Source: Candidatus Amesbacteria bacterium GW2011_GWB1_47_19
GTDB taxonomy: Bacteria > Patescibacteriota > Microgenomatia > CAZETR01 > Amesbacteraceae
Direction: 5' to 3'
Assembly: GCA_001002325.1 (NCBI GenBank)
Contig: LCNZ01000005.1
Span: 18,274 to 82,273 of the forward strand
DNA: 64,000 nt
Under the pieces are notes generated by a model. The model saw only the letters and a list, made by a program, of their open reading frames with translations. It did not search any database and was not told the origin of the DNA. Both the position numbers and the translations under genes were made by a program. This document shows positions 7,079 to 60,122 of this stretch, one piece after another (the stretch's first letter is position 1; every line of letters starts with the position of its first letter).

Positions 7079-7080
7079 TG

Positions 7081-7287: not shown

Positions 7288-7316
7288 TCGCCGCCCGTAA
7301 TTTGAGTATATTTTAC

Positions 7317-7358: not shown

Positions 7359-7411
7359 GAAATTCCACCGTCCCGATTTTCATCGGAACCGCGGAACCTG
7401 ACGGGATTGTA

Positions 7412-8173: not shown

Positions 8174-8184
8174 GGGGAAAGCGG

Positions 8185-8754: not shown

Positions 8755-8760
8755 AATTTT

Positions 8761-8806
8761 GAGCGGCTAAGGGGAATCGAACCCCTGTCACCCCGCCATG
8801 GCGGGG
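8761..8806 (-). repeat. duplicated 3' 30 nt of tRNA-Gly(GCC) followed by 16-bp perfect palindrome
   Basis: 8761-8790 is identical to 9072-9101. It is immediately followed by CCCCGCCATGGCGGGG (8791-8806). Confidence 0.75.
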
Positions 8807-8816
8807 AGTTCAGCTA

Positions 8817-9065
8817 TTAACAAGTATTACCTAGTAACCGCTTCATGGCATTTCCGCCTTTGTAAGATTTTAGCACTTTTTCTCTTTGTTTAGCTTCGAT
8901 GGGGATGGAATATTCTTCTTTATAAATTAGGATCCACTCCCCTCTCCTGCGAGTTGAAATATTTTGACCACGATTGTGTTCGGATAGACGACGGGATATA
9001 TCGTTGGTACTACCTATGTAATGCCGACCTGAGTAAGTATTTCTGAGAATGTATGTATAGAACAT
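8817..9065 (-). CDS. GIY-YIG nuclease family mini-protein
   Basis: YTYIL...GRHYIGST...RRLSEHN, the GIY-YIG core and Arg/Glu-His motif. 82 aa. Confidence 0.8.
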   Translation of the reverse strand: MFYTYILRNTYSGRHYIGSTNDISRRLSEHNRGQNISTRRRGEWILIYKEEYSIPIEAKQREKVLKSYKGGNAMKRLLGNTC

Positions 9066-9072
9066 TCTAATG

Positions 9073-9143
9073 AGCGGCTAAGGGGAATCGAACCCCTGTC
9101 ATCTCCTTGGCAAGGAGAAGTTCTACCATTGAACCATAGCCGC
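9073..9143 (-). tRNA. tRNA-Gly (anticodon GCC)
   Basis: Acceptor gcggcta/tagccgc, anticodon loop ttGCCaa, T-loop ttcgatt. Confidence 0.85.
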
Positions 9144-9147
9144 AGTG

Positions 9148-9220
9148 TGCCGAGAGCTGGAGTCGAACCAGCATCTGACGCTCTTCAGGCGCCCGCCGTA
9201 ACCACCTTGGCTATCTCGGC
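9148..9220 (-). tRNA. tRNA-Phe (anticodon GAA)
   Basis: Acceptor gccgaga/tctcggc, anticodon loop ctGAAga, T-arm gctggttcgactccagc. Confidence 0.85.
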
Positions 9221-9295
9221 GAAGGAATGAAATGACTGAGCTGAGATACAGCGTAAGTCGTATCTCGGCAAGGAACGAGCTTCAGTTGGATTTTA

Positions 9296-9478
9296 CTACA
9301 TCCGGGGAGGGCTTAAACAGTATCCAGTGCGGTCTCTCCCTTTTTTTAAAAATCTAAAATCTGTATTAAATAGTTTATCAACTTGAGCCGCGGATGGTCT
9401 AATACCTGTATTTTTTTCCACCAAATCTTGAAAATTAGATATTATTTCTTCCCGAAGTTGTTCTTGGGAGGTAGCCAT
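9296..9478 (-). CDS. hypothetical small ORF (60 aa)
   Basis: ORF only. Sits between tRNA-Phe and tRNA-Val. No similarity recognised. Confidence 0.2.
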   Translation of the reverse strand: MATSQEQLREEIISNFQDLVEKNTGIRPSAAQVDKLFNTDFRFLKKGRDRTGYCLSPPRM

Positions 9479-9523
9479 TTATTGATTGTATACCTGGGGT
9501 CAATAGTTGCTGACGCTGTCTGG

Positions 9524-9597
9524 TGGACGATGAGGGACTCGAACCCCCGACCCCCGCTGTGTAAAAGCGATGCTCTAACCAGCTGAGCTAATCGTCC
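9524..9597 (-). tRNA. tRNA-Val (anticodon TAC), CCA encoded
   Basis: Acceptor ggacgat/atcgtcc, anticodon loop ttTACac, T-arm gggggttcgagtccctc, followed by cca. Confidence 0.85.
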
Positions 9598-9616
9598 TGA
9601 GATTATATTACAGCTG

Positions 9617-9700
9617 TGGGCAAGAGAGGACTTGAACCTCCACTCCCTTGCGGGAACAGGCTCCTGAAGCCTGCGCGTCTGCCAGTTCCGCCACTTGCCC
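9617..9700 (-). tRNA. tRNA-Leu (anticodon CAG), type II
   Basis: Acceptor gggcaag/cttgccc, anticodon stem caggc/gcctg with loop ttCAGga, long variable arm, T-loop ttcaagt. Confidence 0.85.
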
Positions 9701-9945
9701 TAGAACTGATTCATGAGCTCCGCAATTATCTCACGTCCGAAACCGGATTTGAAGAATTTCTCAAGATTCCTGGCCTGTATTCTGGTATCGCACTCTTCGA
9801 CGTGAATCAATCGCAACGGCAAATGACCTCTTGTGGAGGGCGATTTACCACTTTCGTGTTGATACAGGCGTCTTTGTAAGTTGTTGGTTATCCCTTTGTA
9901 AATGAATTTATCCCCGTAACTTTGAAGGATATAAACAAAATACAT
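9700..9945 (-). CDS. GIY-YIG nuclease family mini-protein
   Basis: MYFVYILQS...KFIYKGITNNLQRRLYQHE. The stop codon overlaps nt 1 of tRNA-Leu(CAG). Confidence 0.8.
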   Translation of the reverse strand: MYFVYILQSYGDKFIYKGITNNLQRRLYQHESGKSPSTRGHLPLRLIHVEECDTRIQARNLEKFFKSGFGREIIAELMNQF

Positions 9946-9948
9946 GTT

Positions 9949-10073
9949 TGAAGCCTGCGCGCCTGCCTGCCGGCAGGCAGGTCTGCCAGTTCCGCCACTT
10001 GCCCTAGAACTGATTCATGAGCTCCGCAATTATCTCACGTCCGAAACCGGATTTGAAGAATTTCTCAAGATTC
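9949..10073 (-). repeat. direct repeat of 9665-9769 (GIY-YIG 3' end plus tRNA-Leu nt 1-36) with inserted 20-bp palindrome
   Basis: 13 + 92 nt are identical to 9665-9677 and 9678-9769. Perfect palindrome CCTGCCTGCCGGCAGGCAGG at 9962-9981 sits between them. Confidence 0.8.
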
Positions 10074-10194
10074 TTATGAGAAAAATGAATCAATCAAACT
10101 GCTTATATTGATGTACCCAAACCAAAATGTCATATGTCTTACGCGAAAAAAATATAAAATTGTCAATTCATTGGGTATAATTAAGAAAGTAGGA

Positions 10195-10278
10195 GCCGGG
10201 ATGCTGAAACTGGTAGACAGGCATGCTTGAGGGGCATGTGTCAGCAATGGCGTGGAGGTTCGAGTCCTCTTCCCGGCA
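10195..10278 (+). tRNA. tRNA-Leu (anticodon GAG), type II
   Basis: Acceptor gccggga/tcccggc, anticodon stem catgc/gcatg with loop ttGAGgg, long variable arm. Confidence 0.8.
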
Positions 10279-10282
10279 CACT

Positions 10283-10366
10283 GCCGGGGTGGCGAAATGG
10301 TAGACGCAAGGGCCTTAAGAGCCCTCGGTCCAAAAGACCATGCGAGTTCGAGTCTCGCCCCCGGCA
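10283..10366 (+). tRNA. tRNA-Leu (anticodon TAA), type II
   Basis: Acceptor gccgggg/ccccggc, anticodon stem agggc/gccct with loop ctTAAga, T-arm gcgagttcgagtctcgc. Confidence 0.85.
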
Positions 10367-10368
10367 CA

Positions 10369-10764
10369 ATGAGTTTTGAGTGTGTTAATTGTCATTACCT
10401 GGTACGGGAAGGTAAAAGATATGCCGGGACGGAAAACAGAAACCATTGCACGAAATGTTTGTGGTCATTGCATGCGGATTTAAGACCTGGTGACAGAAAA
10501 GCATTGTGCGGAGGAAAAATGAATCCCGCGGGGCTTACTTTTAAGCGGGTGAAAAAAGATAAGTACGGGAAAGAAAAGGTTGGAGAATTGATGCTAGTAC
10601 ACCAATGCGTAAAATGCCTAGAAGTATCAATAAACAGGATTGCGGCGGATGACGACCCGGTGGAAATAATGAATCTCGTAAATTCCGGTTTTTCTGTTGA
10701 AGGAATCAGTGTGCTGGATGAGGCTGACAGGTCGGAAGTACGCAGGCAGCTATTCGGGGTGTAA
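10369..10764 (+). CDS. RNHCP-domain zinc-ribbon protein
   Basis: Literal RNHCTKC signature plus additional CxxC pairs. The ATG lies 2 nt after tRNA-Leu(TAA). The ORF-track upstream extension from 10252 covers two tRNAs and is rejected. Confidence 0.6.
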   Translation: MSFECVNCHYLVREGKRYAGTENRNHCTKCLWSLHADLRPGDRKALCGGKMNPAGLTFKRVKKDKYGKEKVGELMLVHQCVKCLEVSINRIAADDDPVEIMNLVNSGFSVEGISVLDEADRSEVRRQLFGV

Positions 10765-10775
10765 AATTATAAACA

Positions 10776-10848
10776 CGGAGAGTGGCGCAGCTGGTAGCGC
10801 GCATCGTTTGGGACGATGAGGCCCCGGGTTCGAGTCCCGGCTCTCCGA
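10776..10848 (+). tRNA. tRNA-Pro (anticodon TGG)
   Basis: Acceptor cggagag/ctctccg, anticodon stem catcg/cgatg with loop ttTGGga, T-arm ccgggttcgagtcccgg. Confidence 0.85.
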
Positions 10849-10904
10849 CAAAGTTGAGGCGAAGTTTATTTTTAGCGTGAAATGGTTTAGGATATTGTCA
10901 GAGT

Positions 10905-11345
10905 ATGTGGAAAAAATCGTGGGGAGTGTTTGTAGGTGCGGGACTGGTAGCCGGTTTGTTGCCGGTGATGGTCTGGGGGGTTAGTTCCGGAACCAGGACA
11001 CTGTTCTCCACCCGGGCTCAGACACATGAACTGAGATTATGGTGGGAGCCGGCGGAAGCGACCCTGCGGATAGATCAGGCGATGAAATTTAAGCTGATGG
11101 CAAATGTTGAAAGTAAAAACGGAATTCCGGCACTGGAAATGGAATTGGATATCCCCAAGGGGATACTTGTAGCCCCGAAGATTGTCAGATACGGTAAACT
11201 TATCGGTACCTCAGTGGTCGGTGAAGTGGATGTAGTGGCGGTAAACCAGGGAGATTTTTTGATTGGTATCATAGAAGACAAAGTAGTTACCGGCTATCCT
11301 GATATCACCATAATAGCCTCTCCGGTAAAAATCAAAGTCAGGTAA
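10905..11345 (+). CDS. hypothetical secreted protein (first gene of pilin-like operon)
   Basis: N-terminal signal/TM. Ends 4 nt before the next gene. Confidence 0.45.
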   Translation: MWKKSWGVFVGAGLVAGLLPVMVWGVSSGTRTLFSTRAQTHELRLWWEPAEATLRIDQAMKFKLMANVESKNGIPALEMELDIPKGILVAPKIVRYGKLIGTSVVGEVDVVAVNQGDFLIGIIEDKVVTGYPDITIIASPVKIKVR

Positions 11346-31901: not shown

Positions 31902-31973
31902 GCCCCCGTAGCTCAACGGACAGAGTAAGTCCCTTCTAAGGACGAGATGGAGGTTCGATTCCTCCCGGGGGCA
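31902..31973 (+). tRNA. tRNA-Arg (anticodon TCT)
   Basis: Acceptor gcccccg/cgggggc, anticodon loop ctTCTaa, T-arm ggaggttcgattcctcc. Confidence 0.8.
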
Positions 31974-31978
31974 CTTGT

Positions 31979-32050
31979 GGGCCCGTAGCTCAGGGGTAGA
32001 GCAGTCGCCTCTTAAGCGAACGGTCGAAGGTTCGAATCCTTCCGGGCTCA
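31979..32050 (+). tRNA. tRNA-Lys (anticodon CTT)
   Basis: Acceptor gggcccg/cgggctc, anticodon loop ctCTTaa, T-arm gaaggttcgaatccttc. Confidence 0.8.
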
Positions 32051-32055
32051 CTTAA

Positions 32056-32126
32056 TGCGAGGTCGTCTAATGGTAGGACAGCAGACTTTGGATCTGCTTA
32101 TCTTGGTCCGAATCCAAGCCTCGCAG
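32056..32126 (+). tRNA. tRNA-Gln (anticodon TTG)
   Basis: U1:A72 acceptor tgcgagg/cctcgca, anticodon stem gcaga/tctgc with loop ctTTGga, T-arm cttggtccgaatccaag, discriminator G, followed by a T-run. Confidence 0.85.
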
Positions 32127-32180
32127 CTTTTTTATGATAGTGTTAGTGGACGATGTAAGAACCACCTATTGAGGTGTTAT

Positions 32181-46787: not shown

Positions 46788-48818
46788 TTACTTATCTTTT
46801 AAACCTCGAATCTCGGCTATACGGTCGCGGATTTTGGCGGCAAGTTCGAAATCCAGGTTTTTGGCGGCCCTGATCATGTCACGGTTCATTATTTTTACCA
46901 GTTTGGTGAGGTCCGAAGGGGTAAGCTGGAAAACACGAGACATGTCCACATCGGAAGCGTCAAGTGAACGGCCTTTGAGAATCTGTGCGGGATCGAGTTT
47001 GACCGGAGAGTCTTCGGTTGCTGCCTCGACAATCCTTTCCCGGATGGGCTTGGTAATACTGGCAGGAATAATATGGTGTTTGAGGTTATATTCCAGCTGG
47101 ATCTCTCTCCGGCGTTCGACCTCGGAGATAGCATGGCGCATGGAGTCAGTAATGTGATCAGCATACATAATCACCTGACCGTCTACATGACGGGCAGCTC
47201 TGCCCATGGTCTGAATCAGGGACGTTCGGGATCGCAAAAATCCTTCCTTGTCCGCATCCAAAATTGCCACCAGCGAAACTTCGGGTAAATCCAAACCTTC
47301 GCGCAATAAATTGATGCCTACTACCACATCGTAAGTTCCGGAGCGCAAATCGCTGAGCACATCCAGGCGGGTTAAGGTCTCGATATCCGCATGCAGATAA
47401 TGGACTTTTATGCCGTGTTCCTGAAGGTAGGCGGACAGATCTTCAGCCATCCTTTTGGTAAGGGTGGTAACCAGAACCCGCTGACCGCGGGAGGTGCGAT
47501 CTGAGATATGAGAAACGAGAGATGAAATTTGATTTTTGGTCGGTAGAACCAGGATCTGTGGGTCAACCAGGCCGGTGGGACGGATGAGCTGTTCGACTAT
47601 TTGACCCGATGACAGGGATATTTCCCAGTCGTTGGGAGTAGCAGAGGTGTACATTGTCAACCCCATACGCCTCTGGAATTCGTCAAACTTGAGCGGCCGG
47701 TTGTCCAGAGCAGAAGGCAAGCGGAAACCAAAATCTATAAGTGTCTGCTTGCGGGATCTGTCTCCGTTGTACATTCCGCGGACCTGAGGGACCGTAATGT
47801 GAGACTCGTCGATAATCAATAAGTAATCCTTGGGAAAATAATCAAGAAGACTGTATGGCGGGTCACCGGGATTACGACCGTCAAAATAACGGGAGTAATT
47901 TTCGATGCCGTTGACGTATCCCAATTCGCGGATCATTTCCAAATCGTAGGTGACACGCTGATGTAGCCGATGCGCCTCCAGAATTTTTCCTGATCCGCGC
48001 AGCAACTTTTCCTGTGAGGTCAAGTCGGAAGTGATCTGAGAAAATATTTCATTCTGATTATCGCGTGAAGCGATGTAATGCTTGGCGGGATAGATCACAT
48101 GATTGATGATTGGAGATTCAGGATTGATGATTTCTCCCGTAAAGGAATTAATTTTTTCAATTTTTGTGATTTTTATTCCGTCGTGACGGATGCGGACGGC
48201 CGTATCCTCATAAGCCGGATAGATATCGATTACTTCACCCCTGAGACGGTAAGTTCCCCGGCGGAAGTCAAAATCAGAGCGGGAATATTGAAGATGGTTG
48301 AGGCGCAGCGTGATCTGTTCCCGGGTAACTTTCAAACCGGGAACAAGTTCAAGTACAGATTTGCCATATTCAGCCGGTGAGCCGAGGTTGTAGATACATG
48401 AGACCGAAGCTACAACCAGAGTATCTTTGCGGGTAAGCAGGTTCGTGGTAGCTGCTAAACGAAGCTTGTCGATCTCGGCGTTGATGTCTGTTTCTTTTTC
48501 GATGTAAGTGTCGGTTGAGGGAATATATGCTTCGGGCTGGTAATAATCGTAATAGGACACAAAATATGAGACAGCGTTGTCAGGGAAATATTCTTTGAAT
48601 TCCTGATAAAGCTGGGCAGCTAGAGTCTTGTTATGGGAAATTATCAGAGTGGGTTTCTGATATGCAGCAATAACGTTGGCCATGGTAAAAGTTTTGCCGC
48701 TGCCGGTAACTCCCAGAAGCACCTGATGGGACTGGCCGGACTTCAGACCAGCGATCAATTTTTCAATCGCCTGTGGCTGATCACCGGTGGCATGATATGG
48801 AGAGACTAATTTAAACAT
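46788..48818 (-). CDS. uvrB: Excinuclease ABC subunit B
   Basis: Helicase motifs (GVTGSGKT, DESH) and the C-terminal UvrB/UvrC interaction domain. Confidence 0.95.
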   Translation of the reverse strand: MFKLVSPYHATGDQPQAIEKLIAGLKSGQSHQVLLGVTGSGKTFTMANVIAAYQKPTLIISHNKTLAAQLYQEFKEYFPDNAVSYFVSYYDYYQPEAYIPSTDTYIEKETDINAEIDKLRLAATTNLLTRKDTLVVASVSCIYNLGSPAEYGKSVLELVPGLKVTREQITLRLNHLQYSRSDFDFRRGTYRLRGEVIDIYPAYEDTAVRIRHDGIKITKIEKINSFTGEIINPESPIINHVIYPAKHYIASRDNQNEIFSQITSDLTSQEKLLRGSGKILEAHRLHQRVTYDLEMIRELGYVNGIENYSRYFDGRNPGDPPYSLLDYFPKDYLLIIDESHITVPQVRGMYNGDRSRKQTLIDFGFRLPSALDNRPLKFDEFQRRMGLTMYTSATPNDWEISLSSGQIVEQLIRPTGLVDPQILVLPTKNQISSLVSHISDRTSRGQRVLVTTLTKRMAEDLSAYLQEHGIKVHYLHADIETLTRLDVLSDLRSGTYDVVVGINLLREGLDLPEVSLVAILDADKEGFLRSRTSLIQTMGRAARHVDGQVIMYADHITDSMRHAISEVERRREIQLEYNLKHHIIPASITKPIRERIVEAATEDSPVKLDPAQILKGRSLDASDVDMSRVFQLTPSDLTKLVKIMNRDMIRAAKNLDFELAAKIRDRIAEIRGLKDK

Positions 48819-48866: not shown

Positions 48867-49511
48867 ATGCCGGTGACACTTTACAACAGACAGAGACAAA
48901 TTTTAGATTTTATCGCCCAATTTATCCAGAGGAACGGTTACTCCCCTACTCTTCAGGAAATTGCTGGAGCTTTGGGAGTATCTTCCCTGGCAACGGTTCA
49001 TGAACACTTGGAAGCAATGTCTAAAAAAGGCATCATCAAAAGGTTTGAGGGCACGGTCCGGGGGATAGAAATCCTGGATAAGGAGGTGGCGGCCCGCCAG
49101 GCGGCGGGCCCAGCGGCCGTGGAACTGCCTATCTTAGGATTTATTGCCGCCGGGCAGCCGATTGAGCCGTTTACCGATCCCAACGCCACGTTCGGAGTAC
49201 CGCCACTGATGGTGTCACCGAAAAAGAGATGTTTCGTCCTGCAGGTAAAAGGTGAATCCATGATTGAAGCGGGGATTTTTGACAGGGACTACGTGGTGAT
49301 TGAACAAACAGAAACTGCAAAAGACGGGGAAGTGGTGGTAGCTTTGTTGGATAACGGGTTTGCTACCCTGAAGAGATTCTTTAAGGAGGCTACCAGAATC
49401 CGCCTGGAACCGGCCAATTCCAGCATGTCCCCTATTTTCGTGGCAGGTGATAAGGTCAGGATACAGGGGAAAGTAGTGGGAGTTATCAGAAGGTATAATC
49501 AGGTAAATTAG
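48867..49511 (+). CDS. lexA: LexA repressor
   Basis: N-terminal wHTH (LTxRQxxIL, TLQEIA) and C-terminal S24 peptidase with the Ser...Lys dyad region (VKGESMIEAGI...VVALLDNGFATLKRF). Confidence 0.85.
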   Translation: MPVTLYNRQRQILDFIAQFIQRNGYSPTLQEIAGALGVSSLATVHEHLEAMSKKGIIKRFEGTVRGIEILDKEVAARQAAGPAAVELPILGFIAAGQPIEPFTDPNATFGVPPLMVSPKKRCFVLQVKGESMIEAGIFDRDYVVIEQTETAKDGEVVVALLDNGFATLKRFFKEATRIRLEPANSSMSPIFVAGDKVRIQGKVVGVIRRYNQVN

Positions 49512-49832: not shown

Positions 49833-50453
49833 CTAACCACGGCGGAGACGGTTGGAAATGAAGTGGTAAATTATGGGAGCGACGGAGAGGAAGATGATGG
49901 CGAGGATGACCAGGGTGAAGTTGTGTTTGACGGTGGGGATATTGCCGAAGAAGTAACCGGTCAGGGTGAAAGCAAATACCCAAACCAGCCCTCCGAAGAT
50001 GTTATAAGAGATAAATTTGGAATATTCCATTTTGCCTATTCCGGCCACAAAGGGGGCAAAAGTTCGCACGATAGGTACAAAACGGGCCAGAAATATGGTT
50101 TTCCCCCCATGTTTGGCAAAAAAAGCATTGGTCTGGTCGATGTGGTGCTTGTTGATCGGGATTTTCGGGTTAGCGATAATTTTTTCACCGAAAAAATGGC
50201 CTATCCAATAATTGGCGGTGTCTCCCAGAACGGCAGCAAAAAAGAGCAGGCCCAATAAAAGATAAAGGTTAAGTGAACCCATGGCGGCAAAAGCACCGGA
50301 TGCGAACAAAAGACTGTCACCGGGAAGAAATGGGGTGATGACAAAGCCGGTTTCCAGAAAAATTATGAAAAACAAGATGGCATATACAAAAACACCGTAA
50401 TTGGCTATCAGCTCTCCCAGATGCACGTCGATATGCAGTATAAAATCGATCAC
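49833..50453 (-). CDS. DedA family membrane protein
   Basis: GFVITPFLPGDSLLFASGAFAA DedA signature. Confidence 0.8.
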   Translation of the reverse strand: MIDFILHIDVHLGELIANYGVFVYAILFFIIFLETGFVITPFLPGDSLLFASGAFAAMGSLNLYLLLGLLFFAAVLGDTANYWIGHFFGEKIIANPKIPINKHHIDQTNAFFAKHGGKTIFLARFVPIVRTFAPFVAGIGKMEYSKFISYNIFGGLVWVFAFTLTGYFFGNIPTVKHNFTLVILAIIFLSVAPIIYHFISNRLRRG

Positions 50454-50478
50454 AGGTTATAATAATAATGGATATATG

Positions 50479-51162
50479 GGTAAGTTGTACATAGTCGCCA
50501 CACCGATTGGTAATCTGGAAGACATTACCATCAGAGCGGTCAGGATTTTGCTGGAGACTGAAGTAATAGTGTGCGAGGATACAAGACGTACCGGGATCTT
50601 GATAAAACTTATTTTTGAAAAGTTCGGTACTTCAATTTTCAATTTTCAATATAAAAATTCCAAAAAAAAGAAATTTATTTCCGTCAGGGATTGGAATGAA
50701 GCGGAAATGTTACCAAAGGTGCTGGAAGAATTGGAGAAGGGGGATGTGGCTGTAGTAAGCGATGCCGGGACTCCCCTGTTATCAGACCCGGGTTTTAAGC
50801 TGGTGAGAGCCGCCAGAAAGGGTGGATTTAACGTCTCCCCTATCCCCGGTCCGTTCGCGGGAGCGGCGGCCCTGAGCGCCGCAGGATTGCCTACCAATAA
50901 ATTTATGTTTTGGGGATTTTTACCCAAAAAATGGGAGCTGTTACCCGGAATGACGCATGTGATTTATGAGTCACCGATAAGACTTAGTAAGACTTTGGAG
51001 ATTATTTCCGGGAGATATCCAAATGCGGAAGTTGTAGTAGCCAGGGAGATGACTAAGATACACGAGAAAATTTACAATTTTAAATTTGAAATTTTAAATC
51101 AAGAACAAAATTCAAAAACAAAGGGAGAGGCGACGATTCTGGTATATTTTCCGGAGATTTAA
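50479..51162 (+). CDS. rsmI: 16S rRNA (cytidine1402-2'-O)-methyltransferase
   Basis: LYIVATPIGNLEDIT...VCEDTRRT...VSDAGTPLLSDPG, the tetrapyrrole-methylase-fold RsmI pattern. Start chosen at MGKLYIV. Confidence 0.85.
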   Translation, partial: GKLYIVATPIGNLEDITIRAVRILLETEVIVCEDTRRTGILIKLIFEKFGTSIFNFQYKNSKKKKFISVRDWNEAEMLPKVLEELEKGDVAVVSDAGTPLLSDPGFKLVRAARKGGFNVSPIPGPFAGAAALSAAGLPTNKFMFWGFLPKKWELLPGMTHVIYESPIRLSKTLEIISGRYPNAEVVVAREMTKIHEKIYNFKFEILNQEQNSKTKGEATILVYFPEI

Positions 51163-51427: not shown

Positions 51428-53080
51428 TTAAGTTTGGGGGAGGGTGGAGAGGAGGTTGCGGCCGGTCATATTGATGGGGATGGGAATTTTCATAAGCGAC
51501 AACAGAGTGGGTGCGACATCGGCAAGTATACCCTGGGAAACCTGGGCAGAAAAACGCATGGAATTGCCGGCTACAATAAACGGCACGGGATTGGCATTGT
51601 GCTCGGTATCCACGCCTCCCGTGGCCATATTTATCATTTCTTCAGCATTACCGTGATCTGCGGTTAATACCAGCACACCGTCGCTGCCGATTACCGTGGC
51701 GGCCAAATCGGTGAGACAGCTGTCAACGGTCTGACAAGCTTTGACCGTGGCTTCAATGTTTCCGGTATGTCCGACCATATCGGGGTTGGCATAATTTATG
51801 ACAATCAGGTCATGGTTGGCAGAGCGGATCATGGCAATCACCCTGTCGGTAATTTCCCTGGCTGACATTTCCGGTTTTTTGTCATATGTGGGGACATTGG
51901 GGGATGGAATAATCAGGCGGTCTTCACCAATAAACGCCTCTTCACGAAGTCCGTTAAAATAGTAAGTGACAAACCGCTCTTTTTCGGATTCACAGATACG
52001 CAGCTGACGCAGGCCATGATCAGCAACGACGCGACCCAAAGGGTTTTCCACCACTTGTGGAGGAAAAGCGACATTAACAGGAAGATTTTTTTCATATTCG
52101 GTCATGGTGACAAAAAACAGATTTTTGAGCATTTTGGGACGGGAAAAAGGCTGCTGTTTTGATACCATGGAAGCGTCTATCTCATGCTTTTTGAGGTATT
52201 TGATAGCATAAGGGTCGAACCCGACAATGTTGGCGGTTTTTTCGAAATCGGGCAGGACAAAGGATTTTGCCAGCTGCCGGGGACGGTCAATGCGAAAATT
52301 GACGAAAATTACAGCATCGTTATCTTTTATGAGAGCTGTGGGACGGTTGTCGGAATCGGTAATGATCGTAGGTTCGACAAATTCATCAGTCTGGTTGGCG
52401 GCATAGGACTGAGTGATGACCTGTTCCACGGAAGAAGCGGTTTTACCCCGACCTTCGGTGAGACAAAAATAAGCTTTCGCTGTTCGGTCCCAGCGAAAAT
52501 CTCGGTCCATGGCATAATACCTGCCCATGACAGAGGCGATTTTGCCGATACCCTCGCGAGCAATAACGGTCTGTAATTGTTTGATATAAGTCATAGCGGC
52601 GGAAGGGGGTGAATCCCGCCCGTCAGTAAAAATATGCAAAAATATGTCAGGCAAAAGCTGTTCATGACAAAATCGGAGAAGGGCAAAGAAATGCGACAAA
52701 TCGGAATGGACTCCTCCACCCCCCACCAAACCCAGGAGATGCAGACGGGATTTGTGGGCGGTGAGGTGCTTGGCGGCAGAGATCAGAGCGGTATTCTGAA
52801 AGAAACTGCCGTCGGCGATGGACATGTTAATCCGGGGTAAATCCTGGTAAATAATACGGCCGGCTCCCAGATTTAAGTGGCCGGTTTCGGTATTGCCGGG
52901 TTCACGTTTGGGCAGACCCACGGATTCACCGTGAGCTATCAGCTGGGTGTGGACATAAGCCGAAGACAGAGAAGAAAAAGTTGGGGTATTTGCCTGGGAA
53001 ATGGCGTTTCCCTTTCCGGGAGGGGCAATGCCCCAACCATCCAGTATTGCTAAAACGACTTGTCGGATATTTTTGGCCAT
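51428..53080 (-). CDS. gpmI: 2,3-bisphosphoglycerate-independent phosphoglycerate mutase
   Basis: VLAILDGWG start motif and the iPGM metalloenzyme core. Start chosen at MAKNIRQ (the ORF extends further upstream). Confidence 0.9.
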   Translation of the reverse strand: MAKNIRQVVLAILDGWGIAPPGKGNAISQANTPTFSSLSSAYVHTQLIAHGESVGLPKREPGNTETGHLNLGAGRIIYQDLPRINMSIADGSFFQNTALISAAKHLTAHKSRLHLLGLVGGGGVHSDLSHFFALLRFCHEQLLPDIFLHIFTDGRDSPPSAAMTYIKQLQTVIAREGIGKIASVMGRYYAMDRDFRWDRTAKAYFCLTEGRGKTASSVEQVITQSYAANQTDEFVEPTIITDSDNRPTALIKDNDAVIFVNFRIDRPRQLAKSFVLPDFEKTANIVGFDPYAIKYLKKHEIDASMVSKQQPFSRPKMLKNLFFVTMTEYEKNLPVNVAFPPQVVENPLGRVVADHGLRQLRICESEKERFVTYYFNGLREEAFIGEDRLIIPSPNVPTYDKKPEMSAREITDRVIAMIRSANHDLIVINYANPDMVGHTGNIEATVKACQTVDSCLTDLAATVIGSDGVLVLTADHGNAEEMINMATGGVDTEHNANPVPFIVAGNSMRFSAQVSQGILADVAPTLLSLMKIPIPINMTGRNLLSTLPQT

Positions 53081-53106
53081 ATCGCTATTAATTAAATATA
53101 ACACTT

Positions 53107-54171
53107 GTGATAGCATTAACTCAAAAGCGGATGATAATTGAATTAATTGAACCCAGGAAAATAATTTCGTCGATGGGAAGCGATACGGTGGAGGTGAGGA
53201 TGGTGACTGCGGCCGGGGAATATACGGCATCCGTTCCGGCAGGAATCTCCGCCGGAAAATATGAGGTATCAAAAGTGTCTCCTGAGGAAGCGATAGTCCA
53301 AATAGATGAATTTAAGAAAGAATTAACAGGGAAGGAATTTAATCAGCTGGGGTTGGACGAAATATTAAATAAATCCAATTTGGGGGGAAATGCCAAACTG
53401 GCGGTGTCGGCGGCTTTCTGGAAATCGGAAGTCAGATCAAAACTCAGAAAATATCAAAAATTTCCTAAGCTGTTCACACTAATGTTTGAAGGAGGCAAAC
53501 ACGGAAATCCGGAAATTACCATACAGGAAATTGCAGTGGTGGAAGATACAGTAAATACAGCTGTGATTGATTTTCAGGTGCTGAAAAAATATCTTGAAAA
53601 TCAAGGGACGGAGACGACCGTGGGGGCTGAAGGGGCATTTTCTCCGAAAGACTGGGATAACGAACGAGTTTTACAAACCATAAGCGATGTGTTTGGAGAG
53701 AAAAAAATGGCTTTGGATATGGCCGGAAGTTTTATTCCCGATTCATTGAATATAAAGGAAATTATCGCAAAGTATCCGGTGTTTTCCGTGGAGGATCCGT
53801 TTGACGATGAAAGCTGGAATGAATGGAAAACATTTTATGAAGATTATAAAGACAAAATATTGATAGTAGGTGACGATTTGACAGCGACGAACCCAATCCG
53901 ATTGCAGATGGCAACCAATCCCAGAGTTATTAATGCAATGGTAATTAAGCCAAACCAGAACGGGACGATCAGCGGAACCATAGAAACTGCCAAAATAGCC
54001 AGAGAAAACGGTATAGCAACTGTGGTTTCCCACCGGGGTGAAGAGACGGATGATGACTGGCTGGTAGACCTGGCTTTAGAAATAGAAGCTGATTATGTGA
54101 AGTTCGGCGGATTGGAAAGAGGAGAACGGGTGGCAAAGTATAACAGACTCAGAGAATTGGGAATGACATAA
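53107..54171 (+). CDS. Enolase-like paralog (short, 354 aa) with conserved catalytic and metal residues
   Basis: DTVEVRMVTAAGEYTASVPAGIS...; ALDMAGSF; SVEDPFDDESW; IVGDDLTATN; VIKPNQNGTISGT; SHRGEETDD; VKFGG. Confidence 0.6.
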   Translation: MIALTQKRMIIELIEPRKIISSMGSDTVEVRMVTAAGEYTASVPAGISAGKYEVSKVSPEEAIVQIDEFKKELTGKEFNQLGLDEILNKSNLGGNAKLAVSAAFWKSEVRSKLRKYQKFPKLFTLMFEGGKHGNPEITIQEIAVVEDTVNTAVIDFQVLKKYLENQGTETTVGAEGAFSPKDWDNERVLQTISDVFGEKKMALDMAGSFIPDSLNIKEIIAKYPVFSVEDPFDDESWNEWKTFYEDYKDKILIVGDDLTATNPIRLQMATNPRVINAMVIKPNQNGTISGTIETAKIARENGIATVVSHRGEETDDDWLVDLALEIEADYVKFGGLERGERVAKYNRLRELGMT

Positions 54172-55431
54172 TCAACGAGTGGAAGAAATTTCGGTATCGA
54201 TGGAAAGGAAATGGTTGTACTTGGCTACTCTTTCTCCGCGAGCAGGCGCACCGAATTTGGCATAATCCGCTCCTACCCCGACGGCAAAGTCGGCAATAAA
54301 GGTGTCGTTGGTCTCTCCTGAACGGTGGGTAATGTTAATTTTCCATCCGGCGTCCCTGGCTTTTTTAACCGCTGCGATGGCCTCGGAAACGGTGCCGATT
54401 TGATTTGGTTTGATGATAGCCCCATTGCAGGCTTTTTCGGCGATAGCTTTGGAAATTTTGGTCAGGTTGGTAGCCAGCAAATCGTCGCCGACGATAGTGG
54501 TATTCTGGCCAAGCTCCGAAGTAATCTGAGTCCAACCTTTCCAGTCATTTTCGTGCAGAGGGTCTTCTAAAAGACGTAAATGGTATTGCTTGTTGAGATC
54601 CCGAAGATACTCTATGAATTCGGAAGTATCCATGGGAGAGCTGCGATCCTTGATGGTATATCGGCCATCCTTGTAAAAACTATCGGAAGCTACGTCCAAG
54701 CCAAGTTCCACGTCGATCTGGGGTTGTTTCTTGCACTCAATAATCGCCTCGCTTAATATTTCCAGTGCATCCAGATTGGTAAAAAGATTTGGAGCAAAAC
54801 CGCCTTCGTCACCGACGCTGTGAATCGCACCCCGACGGACAAGCAGATTTTTTATCGAATGGTAAATTTCAGCGCCGGTTTGGAGCATTACTGAGAATGT
54901 GGATTTACGGCTGGGGATGATATGGAACTCCTGAAAATCCAGATTACCGGCGCCATGCTTGCCGCCGTTGATCATATTGAAAACAGGAGTGGGGATAAAC
55001 AGCTGGGAGCTGTTTTCAGCCAGTGTGGCAATATAGCGATAAAGCGGAAGAGAAGCCGCCTGGGCCAGAACTTTTGTGACAGACATAGAGACTCCCAACA
55101 GGGAGTTAGCCCCGAAACGGCTCTTGCTGGGGGTACCGTCCAATTGATTTAATATGTTATCCACCTCTTTGACTGTGGAAAAATCCATGCCCACAAGCTT
55201 GGCAGCAATCTCCCGGTTTACGTGGCCCACTGCCTGCAGAACACCTTTTCCGAAATAACGATTGGGGTCGTTGTCGCGCAGTTCAGACGAGTCCGGTATA
55301 CCGATTGAGGATCCCGAAGGGACTGAAGAAACACCGTATTGGCCGGTGTCAAGTATGGCTATGACTTCAACCGTAGGAGTAGCCCGTGAATCCAGGATTT
55401 CTCTGGCGTAAAGCTGTTTAAGTTTGGCCAT
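54172..55431 (-). CDS. eno: Enolase
   Basis: ILDSRATPTVEV, IKPNQIGTVSEAI, SHRSGETNDTFIADFAV, full-length 419 aa. Confidence 0.92.
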   Translation of the reverse strand: MAKLKQLYAREILDSRATPTVEVIAILDTGQYGVSSVPSGSSIGIPDSSELRDNDPNRYFGKGVLQAVGHVNREIAAKLVGMDFSTVKEVDNILNQLDGTPSKSRFGANSLLGVSMSVTKVLAQAASLPLYRYIATLAENSSQLFIPTPVFNMINGGKHGAGNLDFQEFHIIPSRKSTFSVMLQTGAEIYHSIKNLLVRRGAIHSVGDEGGFAPNLFTNLDALEILSEAIIECKKQPQIDVELGLDVASDSFYKDGRYTIKDRSSPMDTSEFIEYLRDLNKQYHLRLLEDPLHENDWKGWTQITSELGQNTTIVGDDLLATNLTKISKAIAEKACNGAIIKPNQIGTVSEAIAAVKKARDAGWKINITHRSGETNDTFIADFAVGVGADYAKFGAPARGERVAKYNHFLSIDTEISSTR

Positions 55432-57745
55432 AAGGATGATTAGTTTTTAATGAAATAAGCTTTTCCTCACAATGGTATACGATTTCCCGGGTGCGGGCAA
55501 TAGCGTCAGGATTAACAGAGATGCTGGTAATACCCCAGGAAACGAGTTTTTCCACCAGATCCGGATACTGGGAGGGTGCCTGACCGCAAATACTGCAAAG
55601 AATTCCTCTTTTGACACAGGTTTTGATGGTTTTTTCTAATGCCCAGAGCACTGCAGGGTTCAGTTCACTGAACTGGGATGCGACTTCTGAGTTGTCACGG
55701 TCTATTCCCAGAATCAGCATGGTGAGGTCGTTACTGCCGATAGATACGCCGTCGATACCGACATCAATGAAGTCGTCCAGAAGGATGACGTTGGCCGGAA
55801 TTTCCACCATCATGTAAAGCTTGAAAGATGAAGATCGATAGAGACCGGCGGCAGCTACCAATTTTTTTACTTCGGTCAGTTCAAATACGGTAGATACGAA
55901 AGGTATCATCAAATGCAGATTTTTCAGGTCCATTTTGTGACGGACGAGTTTAATGGCTTCCAATTCCAAATTGAATACCTCCGGGGTTTTGATATAACGG
56001 AATGCTCCCCTGAAACCGAGCATAGGATTGGATTCTTCTGGTTCGAACTTCTCCCCTCCCTTAAGAGCCCGGTATTCGTTGGTTTTGAAATCTGTTGCCC
56101 GGTAAATCACAGGGCGGGGGTGGAAGGCTTTGCAAAAGATGCCGATGTCTTGAGCCAACTTATTTATAAATTGAAGGCTTTTACCCTCGGCGATGAGTTT
56201 TTTGGGATGAATGCCGATACCGGCTATCATGAATTCAGCCCGCAGGAGACCAACACCGTCGACGTGGATGGTGGAGATTTTTTCCGCCAGATCAGGCTCG
56301 GCCAAATTGACATAAATTTTGGTTGCGGTTTTTAATAAAGAATCCGGAGGCGGTTTTTTGGGATCGGACTGAGCTACCTGTATGGAAGATCGGGGTAATG
56401 AACCTTTGAAAACTTCCCCCGTGACTCCATTTACGGTGATAATCATACCTTCTTTAAGGAATTTGGTGGCCGTGGTGGTGCCGACTACACAGGGTACACC
56501 TAATTCCCGGGAAACGATGGCAGCATGGGAGGTTAGCCCACCCCGGTTGGTAACTATTGCCGAGGCCCGTTTCATGGCCGGGACAAAGTCTGGTGTGGTC
56601 ATATCGGTTACCAAAATGTCGCCTGTTTTGACTTTGTCCAAATGTTTGGTATCCGGAACCAGGCGGACTGGCCCCGAAGCTATTCCGGGGGATGCGGGGG
56701 CTCCGGTAAGTATTGATTTACCGAGATTTTTTGTCAGATCTGCGGGTACGGCGGACTGTTTTTCACCCAAAGTAGTAATGGGCCGGCTCTGGGTGATAAA
56801 CAAGCGATCCTTATATAAAGCCCATTCTATGTCCTGGGGAAAAAAATAATGATGATGGACCTTTTTTCCGATTTTGGCCAGTTCAATAATATATTTATCC
56901 GATAATTTCTGGTGTTTGCGACGGGAACGGGGAACCGGCAGTTGTTTGACACCCAAGGTTTTCCTGACTTCCATCACTTCCTGATTGCTGATTTGGCGCG
57001 AACGGATTTCCAGATCTGACTTTGAGACTTCATAATGATCGGGAGTAACCACACCCTGAACAATATAATCACCCAGGCCATAAATGGCTTCTATCACCAG
57101 AAGGTTTTTGTCCTGGGTTATGGGGTCGATTGTGAACATGACTCCCGAGACTTCTGATTGAACCATCTGCTGAACAGGAACGGCAATACCGACTTTGAAA
57201 TGGTCGAATTTTTTTTGGACCCGATAGAAAATGCTTCTTTCACCGAAAAGCGACAGCCAACACTCCTTAACTTTTAAAAGGACGTTGGAGTCTCCTGAAA
57301 TGTTGAGATAAGATTCCTGCTGACCGGCAAACGAAGCGTCCGGCAAATCCTCGGCGGTGGCAGATGAACGGACAGCCACGGGAATATTTGACCCCAGATT
57401 CCAGTGATCAATATTGAGTTGATGGTAAGCGGAAAATATTTCTGCGGAAACTGCCGGCGGCATTTCGGCGTGATCCAACAAATGCCTGACTTTTTGTGAA
57501 GCCTGTCTGAGCTGTGCCGGGTCCAGGACGTCGACGGAAGACAACAATTGATGGATTTGAGAGCGAAGGCGGTTGTGTTCCAGAAAATTGAAGTAGGCGT
57601 CGGCAATAACCACAAATCCCGGAGGCACGGGAATTCCGGCCGAGGTTAATTCTCCGAGATTGGCTCCTTTACCACCGGCTATATCGATGTCCTCTTTTCC
57701 CAACTGGTCAAACCAGCGGATATATTTATATTTTTTTAATTTCAT
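55418..57745 (-). CDS. ppsA: Phosphoenolpyruvate synthase (pyruvate, water dikinase)
   Basis: N-terminal ATP-grasp GGKGANLGEL, phospho-His domain TNRGGLTSHAAIVSRELGVPCVVG, C-terminal PEP-utilising TIM barrel. 775 aa. Confidence 0.8.
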   Translation of the reverse strand: MKLKKYKYIRWFDQLGKEDIDIAGGKGANLGELTSAGIPVPPGFVVIADAYFNFLEHNRLRSQIHQLLSSVDVLDPAQLRQASQKVRHLLDHAEMPPAVSAEIFSAYHQLNIDHWNLGSNIPVAVRSSATAEDLPDASFAGQQESYLNISGDSNVLLKVKECWLSLFGERSIFYRVQKKFDHFKVGIAVPVQQMVQSEVSGVMFTIDPITQDKNLLVIEAIYGLGDYIVQGVVTPDHYEVSKSDLEIRSRQISNQEVMEVRKTLGVKQLPVPRSRRKHQKLSDKYIIELAKIGKKVHHHYFFPQDIEWALYKDRLFITQSRPITTLGEKQSAVPADLTKNLGKSILTGAPASPGIASGPVRLVPDTKHLDKVKTGDILVTDMTTPDFVPAMKRASAIVTNRGGLTSHAAIVSRELGVPCVVGTTTATKFLKEGMIITVNGVTGEVFKGSLPRSSIQVAQSDPKKPPPDSLLKTATKIYVNLAEPDLAEKISTIHVDGVGLLRAEFMIAGIGIHPKKLIAEGKSLQFINKLAQDIGIFCKAFHPRPVIYRATDFKTNEYRALKGGEKFEPEESNPMLGFRGAFRYIKTPEVFNLELEAIKLVRHKMDLKNLHLMIPFVSTVFELTEVKKLVAAAGLYRSSSFKLYMMVEIPANVILLDDFIDVGIDGVSIGSNDLTMLILGIDRDNSEVASQFSELNPAVLWALEKTIKTCVKRGILCSICGQAPSQYPDLVEKLVSWGITSISVNPDAIARTREIVYHCEEKLISLKTNHPYGQT

Positions 57746-60122
57746 CCTTGTACCAGTCTACCCAAGGAATAGGTCCGGGGTCAATGTGATTTAACAGAGA
57801 TAAATAATAAGCTATAAAACTACCGGTCTGTACCAAATCCATCGACTCAAAGAAACGGGACGGCCCGACAGGTTTGAGGCTTATGACGGGTAAGTGATGG
57901 CGAGTTACGGCAGAAACTGTGACAGGCAGAGTGCGGTTAATTTCCGGGTTATAAAGATCGGAGCCGATAATAACAAAAACCAGGTTTTGGGGAAGAGTTG
58001 AAGGAAAAGTCAATCCTTCCAACAAGTGGTGGTTGGCTTCGGGAACGTCAAACAGAACCGCAAATGTCTTGGCGTTTTCATTTATCTGATTTTTAAATCC
58101 ATGCGCCGGCCCTTTGAGATGTTCTGAGGCAATGAGGACAGGGATGCGGCCGACCAGCTGTTTGGCCAGATTGAAATATGAGTCGGCTAATTCCTGACGT
58201 TTTTTCAGGAAATCGGGCAAATGGTTTAGGTCCTTTATGGGATGAATCAGGCGGCATCGGGAAAGCAATGTGATCAATGCCAGTATGCTGTAACCTAAAC
58301 CCATACGAGGCTGGGTGGAGGGGTTTGCATCAGTTGAAAAAACATAGTGAGGCAGATTTTGGTCGAGGGCAACTTCGGCCAACTTTCCTCCACTGGTAAG
58401 AATATAAATTTGGGCTCCTCGGCTACGGGCTTCGGCCAGTGAGGTGAGAGTCTCTTCGGTATTACCGGAGTAACTGGATATGACTACCAAAGAATTATTG
58501 TCGACAAAATTCGGTAAATGGTATTCAGTCGAAACTACGATAGGGATTTTCAGCTGCTGGCGCTCCAAACCGGCGATAATCCGCCCACCCAGGGCGGATC
58601 CACCCATTCCGGAAATAACGATGTTTTTGGACAGGAAACATGATTCGGGAATATACTGCTGTACCAGATCTCTGATAACCTGGGAACATTGGTCCGGAAA
58701 GGAGGTAATCGAATCACCTACCCTGAGAGAATCCTGGGACTCAAGTTCGGACAGAGATTGATAACCTGAAGTGGTTGTATTAACGGAGGGATTGATAAGA
58801 CCTTTCAGCCAGGCAAGATTTTCCTGGCCGAGTTTTTCACAGCGGGATTTATCGTTACTTTGAACGTACACTCTGAATTCGGGCGCATTACCGGATCCGC
58901 GGAATAACAGCCAATCATGATTGTTCAGTATTACTTTCAGACCGTCCGTGGCGTCAATATCATGAGAGGAATATTTTTCGCGAACCCGGTCGAGAATGTA
59001 GGCATATTTGGAAAAAGGACAGTCTGATTTTTCGCGGAAAAGATAGAATTTTGGGAGTGTGGCGACAGATCGGGAAAGACTGCCTCCCCGGTGTTTGAGG
59101 TAGTTGAGCATTTTTATAAGAGTAGAGCCTCCGTCCCGGCCGTAAAATATTTCACTGCTGATACCGCCGCCATTGGCTTCGAACCCGAATTTTGAACCAT
59201 AACGTTTCATGGCTTCTATAACAAATGTGGAGCCGACTTTGGTACGGTAAACCTTTTTACCCAGGGCATCCACTACGGAGCTGGTACTGACGGGGGTAAC
59301 AAAAGAAGCAGAGTCACTAACAGATGCCAATAAAGAGCAGGAGTAGTCACCGGGAATATAATTTCCCTGCTCGTCGATAAAAACAATGCGATCACCGTCA
59401 ACATCAAATCCCAACCCCAGATCCGCACCTTTGGCCAATATGAGACGTGAGGCCTCTAAAAAAGAGGTGGAAATTTCCGTGTCACGGGGAACAAAATGAG
59501 GCGCCTGGATATCACATTCTTCGGTAGTGATGAAATCAAGACCCAGATCCGAAAGCAGAGCAGGCATGATTTGCGATTGGGTACCATTGGCAGTGTCCAG
59601 GACAATTTTCCAGGAGGGATAAGGCGTGTCTGCCAAATTCTTTAACATATCCAGATACAAATCCCTGGCTGCGTCGGATCTTGTCACCACCGGAATGACC
59701 TGGTTATCAGATGCAGGTGCGTCGTGTTGTGTAAATAAATTCTCGATTTCAATTTCCTGTTTTTTGTTGACTTCCTCACCGTCAAATAAAAATTTAACCC
59801 CGTTTAAATTCGCGGTAATATGGCTGCCGGTAATCATAACCGCTCCACCCAGGTAACCGGTTTGCTTTAAAAAGTAGGTGAGGCAGGGTGTGGGAATCAC
59901 ACCCTGGTCGGATATTTCCCAACCACATGCTGATAAACCTCTGATAACGTCAGTTTTAATGCGGGGGCTGCTGTCGCGGGGATCCATAGCAACAGCGATT
60001 TGGCCGGTTTTCCCTTTGGAAATGAGCCATGAACCGTAGGTATATCCCAGGCGAAAACAGAATTGGGGAGTGAAAAGCTGATCTGCTGGGCCACGAACAC
60101 CGCTGGTACCGAAAAGTTTCAT
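57726..60122 (-). CDS. Fusion protein: alpha-D-phosphohexomutase (PMM/PGM) N-terminal half plus bifunctional phosphoglucose/phosphomannose isomerase (SIS) C-terminal half
   Basis: N-terminal GTSGVRG and the TGSHITANLNG phosphoserine loop. C-terminal GMGGSALGGR plus the PGI/PMI C-domain. Confidence 0.7.
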   Translation of the reverse strand: MKLFGTSGVRGPADQLFTPQFCFRLGYTYGSWLISKGKTGQIAVAMDPRDSSPRIKTDVIRGLSACGWEISDQGVIPTPCLTYFLKQTGYLGGAVMITGSHITANLNGVKFLFDGEEVNKKQEIEIENLFTQHDAPASDNQVIPVVTRSDAARDLYLDMLKNLADTPYPSWKIVLDTANGTQSQIMPALLSDLGLDFITTEECDIQAPHFVPRDTEISTSFLEASRLILAKGADLGLGFDVDGDRIVFIDEQGNYIPGDYSCSLLASVSDSASFVTPVSTSSVVDALGKKVYRTKVGSTFVIEAMKRYGSKFGFEANGGGISSEIFYGRDGGSTLIKMLNYLKHRGGSLSRSVATLPKFYLFREKSDCPFSKYAYILDRVREKYSSHDIDATDGLKVILNNHDWLLFRGSGNAPEFRVYVQSNDKSRCEKLGQENLAWLKGLINPSVNTTTSGYQSLSELESQDSLRVGDSITSFPDQCSQVIRDLVQQYIPESCFLSKNIVISGMGGSALGGRIIAGLERQQLKIPIVVSTEYHLPNFVDNNSLVVISSYSGNTEETLTSLAEARSRGAQIYILTSGGKLAEVALDQNLPHYVFSTDANPSTQPRMGLGYSILALITLLSRCRLIHPIKDLNHLPDFLKKRQELADSYFNLAKQLVGRIPVLIASEHLKGPAHGFKNQINENAKTFAVLFDVPEANHHLLEGLTFPSTLPQNLVFVIIGSDLYNPEINRTLPVTVSAVTRHHLPVISLKPVGPSRFFESMDLVQTGSFIAYYLSLLNHIDPGPIPWVDWYKDEIKKI

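Follow-up and report, generated by a model that had tools for sequence, protein, structure and literature searches.

A shortened, probably active enolase beside the canonical enolase gene of an Amesbacteria genome

We analysed a stretch of 64,000 nucleotides from Candidatus Amesbacteria bacterium GW2011_GWB1_47_19 (contig LCNZ01000005.1; below, "the window" means this whole stretch), which carries two adjoining enolase genes: a canonical one, named enoC, and a much shorter or "mini" one, named enoS; the same names are used for the proteins. Judging from sequence, predicted fold and gene position, enoS is probably a catalytically active enolase, which interconverts 2-phospho-D-glycerate and phosphoenolpyruvate (PEP) plus water. 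Its function would be an ordinary one; its architecture and evolutionary situation are unusual and apparently undescribed. A preliminary description of this DNA had proposed two convergent enolase genes, and the open reading frames (ORFs) lie exactly where it had placed them. Pfam Enolase_N and Enolase_C are found in both proteins (E-values for enoS 2.9e-11 and 3.3e-44), which share 30% identity (E 2e-41). With TIGR01060, the phosphopyruvate hydratase equivalog model, enoC scores 478.7 bits, which is above the cutoff of 300 bits.

The first line of evidence is the active site. Residue numbers are those of E. coli enolase, identical to PDB 3h8a chain A, and yeast numbers are added in brackets. 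In a MAFFT alignment of 121 proteins of the short family, including the enoS of the window, Ser42, His159, Gln167, Glu168, Glu209, Asp246, Glu290, Asp291, Asp317, Asp318, Lys342, Gln345, His370, Arg371, and Lys393 are invariant. Among these are the Mg2+ ligands Asp246, Glu290(295), and Asp317(320), the second-metal ligand Ser42(39) of loop L1, the catalytic base Lys342(345) and acid Glu209(211), as well as the substrate-binding residues, which include His370(373), Arg371(374), and Lys393(396). All six motifs quoted in the preliminary description (ALDMAGSF, SVEDPFDD, VGDDLTATN, IKPNQNGT, SHRGEETDD, and VKFGG) were found in enoS and align, as it had stated, with metal and catalytic positions, namely Asp246, Glu290, Asp317, Lys342, His370, and Lys393. 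Catalysis by enoS would thus use a two-Mg2+ site formed by Asp246, Glu290, Asp317 and the Ser42 loop, with Lys342 as base and Glu209 as acid, and the substrate would be bound via His159, Gln167, Glu168, His370, Arg371, and Lys393. All catalytic residues are present in enoC as well, so that both enolases of the window keep the catalytic set.

The second line of evidence is the position of the gene in related genomes, whose loci are designated by L and a number. Contigs were scanned with two peptide patterns, a non-exhaustive search that gave 46 loci, each from a different assembly, and their ORFs were labelled by BLASTP against reference proteins. That no assembly gave two loci is weak evidence against a further enolase elsewhere in these genomes, as the searched motif does not occur in the window's own enoC. 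A conserved block of Microgenomates has the order PMM/PGI-ppsA-ENO-(gpmI or His_Phos_1 protein)-rsmI-dedA-lexA-uvrB, in which the His_Phos_1 neighbor passes the cutoff of the dPGM subfamily (TIGR01258, 144 bits versus 81.7). The ENO slot is occupied by a canonical enolase of 417-431 amino acids (aa) in L038, L039, L041-L043, L046, L047, L049-L052, and L054, and by the short form only in L013, L016, L023, L025-L032, L034, L035, L037, and L055. The short form adjoins a PEP synthase and/or a phosphoglycerate mutase gene in at least 15 related loci; in L006, it is divergent from PGK-GAPDH, followed by dPGM. Within up to 10 kb of the short-form genes in the fetched loci, no canonical-length enolase was found outside the Amesbacteria-like group. 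Because the short form takes the enolase slot between ppsA and phosphoglycerate mutase and has an invariant active site, we read it as a working enolase; in many Microgenomates it would be the enolase of lower glycolysis. The proposal that enoS is a second enolase isozyme is thereby supported by the invariant residues, the slot in relatives and the intact predicted fold described next.

Note that in the Levybacteria-type order, ppsA is followed by a D-2-hydroxyacid dehydrogenase gene and the short enolase, the last two overlapping by a few bases (L004, L008, L017). Directly downstream of the mini-enolase in operons of this type is a gene for a conserved protein of 291-292 aa (L004:9047-9925 and L014:1816-2691, both on the plus strand), which overlaps the mini-enolase gene in L004 and has no Pfam or NCBIfam match.

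The protein is 73 aa shorter than enoC, rather than the about 65 aa given previously, and approximately 85 residues shorter than E. coli Eno. Nor is the shortening confined to the N-domain, as had been assumed: In total, about 70-85 residues were shed in-frame from six discrete surface segments across both domains, and the C-terminal tail is shorter. These segments are residues 48-66 after loop L1 (deletion A, the "ELRDGDKSRYxGKG" stretch, 19 → 8 residues), residues 90-104 (B, the "LDGTxNKS" loop, 15 → 8), residues 118-150 (C, the fourth and last helix of the N-domain plus linker, 33 → ~20), the barrel loops at residues 169-186 (D, 18 → 11) and 222-243 (E, 22 → 14), and residues 247-287 (F, the hairpin of loop L3, ~40 → 22). 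An AlphaFold2 model built on an alignment of 24 sequences has a mean pLDDT of 90.9 and a pTM of 0.90. It comprises a three-stranded sheet with three helices, one N-domain helix being missing, and a complete beta-beta-alpha-alpha(beta-alpha)6 barrel; according to this model, enoS keeps an intact two-domain enolase fold. The top 50 Foldseek matches in the PDB are all enolases (TMq 0.85-0.91, identity 26-32%). The target chains listed there have 400-459 residues (400-462 for all solved enolase chains listed); therefore, no solved structure in that list represents the reduced form.

With a profile built from the family, 1.84 billion cluster representatives were searched. The core family collapses to a single representative at 50% identity (588 bits), below which follows a continuum of enolases with 348-445 aa. 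Segment lengths were tabulated for 195 sequences. Deletion A is widespread and occurs in many proteins of 380-413 aa, deletion F proceeds stepwise (40 → 27 → 23), and D, E, B, and C accumulate along the series, while 12 core catalytic positions remain intact along the whole size series of 334-445 aa. On these sequence data, enoS stands at the far end of a graded series of shortened enolases in Candidate Phyla Radiation (CPR) bacteria. Intermediate forms are found in WWE3 (371-375 aa), L035 (377 aa), and Shapirobacteria (351-352 aa), and among the Parcubacteria in Wildermuthbacteria and Nealsonbacteria (349 aa). In neighbor-joining (NJ) trees, in which shallow clades are well resolved and the deep order of the shortened forms is not, all proteins of at most 382 aa fall into one nested, weakly supported clade.

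The enoS family is real, constrained and widespread in Microgenomates; it is lineage-specific and not a private paralog of this genome. Searching 5.8 billion proteins at E<=1e-5 gave 891 matches, which puts the feature far beyond chance. The best 120 of these have 316-380 aa and are 48-59% identical to enoS, apart from one identical fragment of 332 aa; those that carry a name are from Amesbacteria, Levybacteria, Microgenomates or Patescibacteria. The family is labelled "enolase" by JGI and UniRef, whereas among the matches listed nearly every NCBI name is "hypothetical protein" and one is "Enolase". In the NJ tree computed from 335 shared columns, the core clade of 334-351-aa proteins, to which enoS belongs, has a bootstrap value of 100%.

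Several findings weigh against reading enoS as an ordinary enolase. It fails three formal marks of the enzyme: the curated cutoff of the hidden Markov model (HMM), as TIGR01060 gives only 191.2 of the required 300 bits; Ser372(375), the phosphate contact in the HRSGET motif, which is Gly in enoS and in 113 of the 121 aligned proteins and Ala in the other 8; and loop L3, whose 20-25 or so residues after Asp246 are cut to about five (MAGSFIPDS). In addition, Gly373 is replaced by Glu, Gln or Asp (Glu in enoS) and, in the core clade, Asp208 by Ala or Val. Finally, the deep part of the NJ tree lacks support (bootstrap 0-27%), and the clade uniting all forms of at most 382 aa reaches 15%. The preliminary statement that all catalytic and metal residues are retained therefore holds for the acid/base pair and the metal ligands, none of which is lost on careful alignment, but not for Ser372, whose exchange for Gly is visible in the quoted motif SHRGEETDD. 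Loop L3 is described as one of three catalytic loops and as poorly conserved (PMC6311853). As for positions 208, 372 and 373, their substitutions do not seem diagnostic of a new function, because the more basal short forms (L033, L045) keep Ser372-Gly373, several full-length enolases also have Gly or Ala at 372, and position 208 varies in canonical CPR enolases too.

The same exchanges are the starting point of the best surviving alternative, a neofunctionalized paralog that applies enolase chemistry to another phosphorylated or alpha-hydroxy acid and leaves glycolysis to enoC. The changes in the pocket (Ser372Gly, Gly373Glu, Asp208Ala, loss of L3), of which the substitutions next to Arg371 are family-specific, are consistent with it, as are the coexistence of enoS with an intact enoC in the window and, in the Levybacteria-type arrangement, the overlap with the D-2-hydroxyacid dehydrogenase gene and the 292-aa protein that follows. 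We nevertheless consider this alternative unlikely. The residues contacting the carboxylate, the C3-OH and both metals are all invariant, the substitutions are missing from basal short forms and sporadic in full-length enolases, and the short form fills the enolase slot in the loci described above with no canonical copy nearby. Moreover, where sister genomes carry two genes, the copy deviating from the enolase consensus is the long one.

Less probable still is that enoS is a non-catalytic partner or pseudoenzyme which regulates or scaffolds, for example in a heterodimer with enoC. The two genes are adjacent, enoS scores under the curated equivalog cutoff, and this group does contain dead enolase homologues (the clade of L050 and protein P0270). 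Catalytic residues are lost in pseudoenzymes, as they are in that clade, yet 15 functional positions are invariant in the 121 sequences of the short family, and most genomes with the short form have no long partner nearby. Still less credit is due to the suggestion that enoS is a moonlighting enolase displayed on the surface, that is, an adhesin or plasminogen-type binder. In many bacteria, enolases that have no signal peptide moonlight; in enoS, an inspection for a hydrophobic, signal-peptide-like N-terminus was negative. In the enolase of S. pneumoniae, the internal motif that binds plasminogen (FYDKERKVY-type) lies in loop L3 (PMC6311853), the region deleted here; the C-terminus (...RELGMT) has no lysines, and the genomic context is purely glycolytic, so that this part of the preliminary description found no support. 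Although enoS is shorter than any solved enolase listed, a frameshifted fragment, a decaying duplicate or an assembly artefact is ruled out for all practical purposes by an uninterrupted ORF, hundreds of equally long homologues from independent assemblies, in-frame deletions at the same positions throughout the family, and the high-confidence structure model.

With enoS taken as a probable enolase, its presence next to enoC has to be explained. Adjacent copies of both genes are confined to Amesbacteria-like loci (the window, L001-L003, L010-L012, L015, L040, and L061). In all of these, enoS is inverted between enoC and gpmI, and the 3' ends of the two enolase genes abut, as in the window (54169-54174), or overlap by 14-24 nt (for example L001 7015-7038 and L011 2824-2838). 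In L057, which has the closest relative of enoC (75% identical), enoC overlaps gpmI directly and the site is empty; it is also empty in L062 and L063, and occupied by a DUF559 gene in L059. The GC content of enoS (42.6%; 42.9% at third codon positions, GC3) is 4-12 points lower than that of its neighbors (46.6-49.8%; GC3 47-55%). In NJ trees, the Amesbacteria enoS sequences form a clade (92%) nested among Levybacteria-type sequences (77%), whereas Amesbacteria enoC groups with enoC of the enoC-only genomes L051/L052 (79%), as does a concatenate of UvrB, LexA, RsmI, and PpsA (~63%). Since the site is empty or polymorphic in relatives, the GC content is lower and the trees place the two genes differently, we lean, by a narrow preference, toward a resident enoC and an enoS that was acquired laterally as an extra copy in this lineage, by an inverted insertion between enoC and gpmI. 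The cell would then possess two enolase isozymes, between which labor may be divided. Against this stands that the direction of transfer rests on moderate support values and on genes linked in one block; an ancient duplication with repeated loss is a less simple reading of the same pattern.

A second case comes from L058 (Amesbacteria RIFCSPHIGHO2_01_FULL_48_32), where a different enolase of 402 aa occupies the same site in the same orientation (8252-9460, minus strand), between enoC (7001-8263) and gpmI (9482-11140). It has deletions A and E only, shows the motifs SHRAGET and GFEGG, and falls outside the short clade; the representative closest to it is P0188 (49% identical, 90% bootstrap). 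Because a different enolase is found at the same site, the enoC/gpmI junction seems to have captured a second enolase at least twice. Small genes of the DUF559 family (Vsr-like endonuclease fold) lie at L059:8291-8674, in the enoC/gpmI junction, and at L063:1336-1704, between PMM-PGI and ppsA; they may be selfish elements marking insertion-prone junctions of the glycolytic block.

In sister lineages with two enolases, it is the canonical copy that changes. The motif K-x-N-Q has become K-x-N-E (Q345E; NQIGT → NE..T) in enoC of L001, L011, L012, L015, L040, L058, and L061, and the 408-aa enoC of L011, L012, L015, and L040 also lacks six residues of loop L1, Ser42 among them. The exchange Q345E occurs in 7 of 8 inspected loci with a second enolase, the window being the exception, and in 1 of 5 without (Fisher's exact test without correction for phylogenetic relatedness, p = 0.03). 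The NE type is also found in all of seven more enoC/enoS pairs, which were matched indirectly only. The single-enolase loci L057, L059, L062, and L063 keep NQIGT; L060, which has NE plus Ser42Ala and no adjoining second enolase, is the exception. Between genomes, enoC is 63-79% and enoS 53-67% identical; the long copies are thus better conserved than the short ones and are therefore not decaying pseudogenes. The enoC of the window keeps NQIGT, and its L1 loop, SGSSIGIPDSSELRD, is atypical, as nearly all of 119 listed relatives have S[ST]G..E[AS].ELRD. Tentatively, and with clearly more doubt than in the case of lateral acquisition, these observations can be read as a paralog displacement in progress: The junction repeatedly captures foreign enolases, after which the resident enoC drifts while purifying selection is kept. 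In most lineages the captured gene would be that of the 345-aa mini form, in L058 that of the unrelated 402-aa form, and the window, with NQIGT still in place and L1 already atypical, would represent the earliest stage. On this correlational evidence, the mini-enolase would take over glycolysis and the long copy would be repurposed.

A canonical-length enolase with a destroyed active site was observed in Levybacteria (L050/L056:10001-11254, plus strand; proteins P0270-P0276 and P0256). This protein of 417 aa, named "enolase C-terminal domain-like protein" by NCBI, carries the changes S42Q, H159N, Q167S/A, E209I, D246N, D317S, and H370G/E/A, and its gene adjoins that of a PpsA truncated to the N-terminal domain (352 aa). 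The generalization that canonical enolases decay wherever a short form exists was rejected: The PpsA of L050 is truncated too, and 109 of 120 listed matches, which are Levybacteria- or Patescibacteria-type where named, are intact. For these two reasons, we prefer to see in the L050 clade a small lineage in which lower glycolysis is being lost.

The features of the window are compiled in Table 1. The order gpmI, short enolase, enoC, ppsA, PMM/PGI given in the preliminary description is correct. Its length of 354 aa applies to the mechanical ORF of enoS; the protein itself likely starts at the later ATG, because homologues of 344-350 aa begin at the aligned Met.

Table 1. Enolase genes, neighbors and synteny anchors in the window
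Feature	Position	Strand	Remarks
enoS (short enolase)	53131..54171	+	346 aa from probable ATG 53131; mechanical ORF from GTG 53107, 354 aa
enoC (canonical enolase)	54172..55431	-	419 aa; terminal gene of PMM/PGI-ppsA-eno operon
gpmI, cofactor-independent phosphoglycerate mutase	51428..53080	-	550 aa from ATG 53080; Pfam iPGM_N and Metalloenzyme
ppsA, phosphoenolpyruvate synthase (pyruvate, water dikinase)	55418..57745	-	Pfam domains and NCBIfam models
Fused phosphomannomutase/phosphoglucomutase (PMM/PGM) and bacterial PGI (SIS)	57726..60122	-	798 aa, first gene of the operon; Pfam PGM_PMM_I-III, SIS, bact-PGI_C
Divergent spacer gpmI/enoS	53081..53130	.	50 bp, AT-rich; presumed promoter region of both genes
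uvrB	46788-48818	-	synteny anchor; conserved Microgenomates block used for positional comparison
lexA	48867-49511	+	synteny anchor; conserved Microgenomates block
dedA/VTT	49833-50453	-	synteny anchor; conserved Microgenomates block
rsmI	50401-51162	+	synteny anchor; conserved Microgenomates block

The anchors uvrB-lexA-dedA-rsmI have the same order in L001-L003 and about 25 more loci, and the gpmI orthologue of L001 likewise encodes 550 aa. Judged from their families, gpmI would supply 2-phosphoglycerate, and ppsA, which scores 952 bits with NF005057 (cutoff 598) and 902 bits with TIGR01418 (cutoff 740), would interconvert PEP and pyruvate; its gene overlaps enoC by 14 nt. PMM/PGM and PGI are likewise fused in L001 and L061 but encoded by separate adjoining genes in L051 and L052, and the fetched DNA of L057, L059, and L062 has only a stand-alone PGI gene (339-342 aa) upstream of ppsA. 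A consensus scan for promoters and terminators around the gene pair gave nothing exceeding shuffled expectation; promoter-like sites near the spacer are weak (9/12 matches) and lie partly within coding sequences. According to the ORF listing, the stop codons of enoS and enoC are directly adjacent at 54171/54172, and the scan of the window found no terminator-like structure between them. Therefore, each transcript should run antisense into the other gene, and transcriptional interference or mutually exclusive expression of the two enolases is possible.

Further observations concern the window and the collected loci as a whole. When the 64 kb (1-64000) are divided into 32 2-kb windows, 30 of them have a positive GC skew on the plus strand, and the cumulative skew climbs monotonically after the first 2-kb window, though most long ORFs are on the minus strand; a similar disparity in strand composition has been reported for other Microgenomates (Kadnikov et al. 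2020, PMC7143001). Fifteen tRNA genes lie within 3282-32127, with tight clusters at 9072-9700, 10195-10849, and 31902-32127. The third-party-annotation (TPA) metagenome-assembled genomes of L011, L013, L016-L018, L020-L022, L026, L027, L029, L030, and others are titled "uncultured Gammaproteobacteria bacterium"; given their gene content and synteny, which are clearly those of Microgenomates/Patescibacteria, the title seems to be either a placeholder or a wrong label.

Full-text literature searching found no published description of a shortened CPR enolase. A survey of CPR glycolysis reported that enolase is patchy or missing and allowed for divergent enzymes missed by HMMs (PMC7304191); part of this patchy distribution could be an annotation artefact caused by the sub-cutoff scores of the mini form. 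The family has a bearing on metabolic reconstruction of CPR/Patescibacteria, as it lies well under the NCBI enolase threshold and is mostly called "hypothetical protein" by NCBI; once it is recognized, the gap in the lower glycolysis of many Microgenomates genomes would be closed. An active mini form would show how far the enolase scaffold can be reduced, being about 20% smaller than the listed solved enolases of 400-462 residues. The missing L3, N-domain helix and ELRD stretch would then bear on the question of which parts are needed for catalysis, dimerization or moonlighting. The two-enolase state of the window is a natural system for studies of paralog replacement.

Among known families, other subgroups of the enolase superfamily (MR/MLE, OSBS, MAL) were rejected, as enoS gave 16.6 bits with MR_MLE_C (cutoff 29.4) and 16.8 with menC (cutoff 200). 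NF006223/PRK08350, a 341-position NCBIfam model named "hypothetical protein", is enolase-related and of similar length, and we take it to be a short enolase-like family of Thermococcales. Membership of enoS was rejected because it does not match this model at E<=0.01; the N-domain of enoC does. An unverified PROSITE-type enolase signature matched enoS and missed enoC at a peripheral position and was given no weight.

With the canonical bacterial enolase (E. coli Eno, PDB 3h8a/1e9i), enoS shares the domains, the barrel, the Mg2+ ligands, the Lys/Glu pair and the substrate residues, and it retains loops L1 (GxSxG..E) and L2 (GGxH...QE) as well as the lower-glycolysis neighborhood. It differs by lacking L3, the post-L1 stretch, one N-domain helix and the C-tail, and by Gly in place of Ser372; its identity to solved canonical enolases is 26-32%. 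The canonical enolases of CPR and Microgenomates (enoC and those of the L051/L047 type) have the motifs IKPNQxGT, AD[YF]VKFGG, and RGERxAKYNRL in common with enoS and occupy the same syntenic slot, whereas 30% identity, the six deletions and the separate clade with 100% bootstrap set enoS apart. The intermediate CPR enolases of WWE3, L035, Shapirobacteria, and Wildermuth- and Nealsonbacteria have the deletion positions and the catalytic set of enoS. In L034-L037, the context is mostly the same, with ppsA and phosphoglycerate mutase, and for L033 and L045 no neighbors were recognized. Compared with enoS, to which they are 36-41% identical, these intermediates either have fewer of the deletions (segments B and C are present in WWE3 and L035) or retain Ser372-Gly373.

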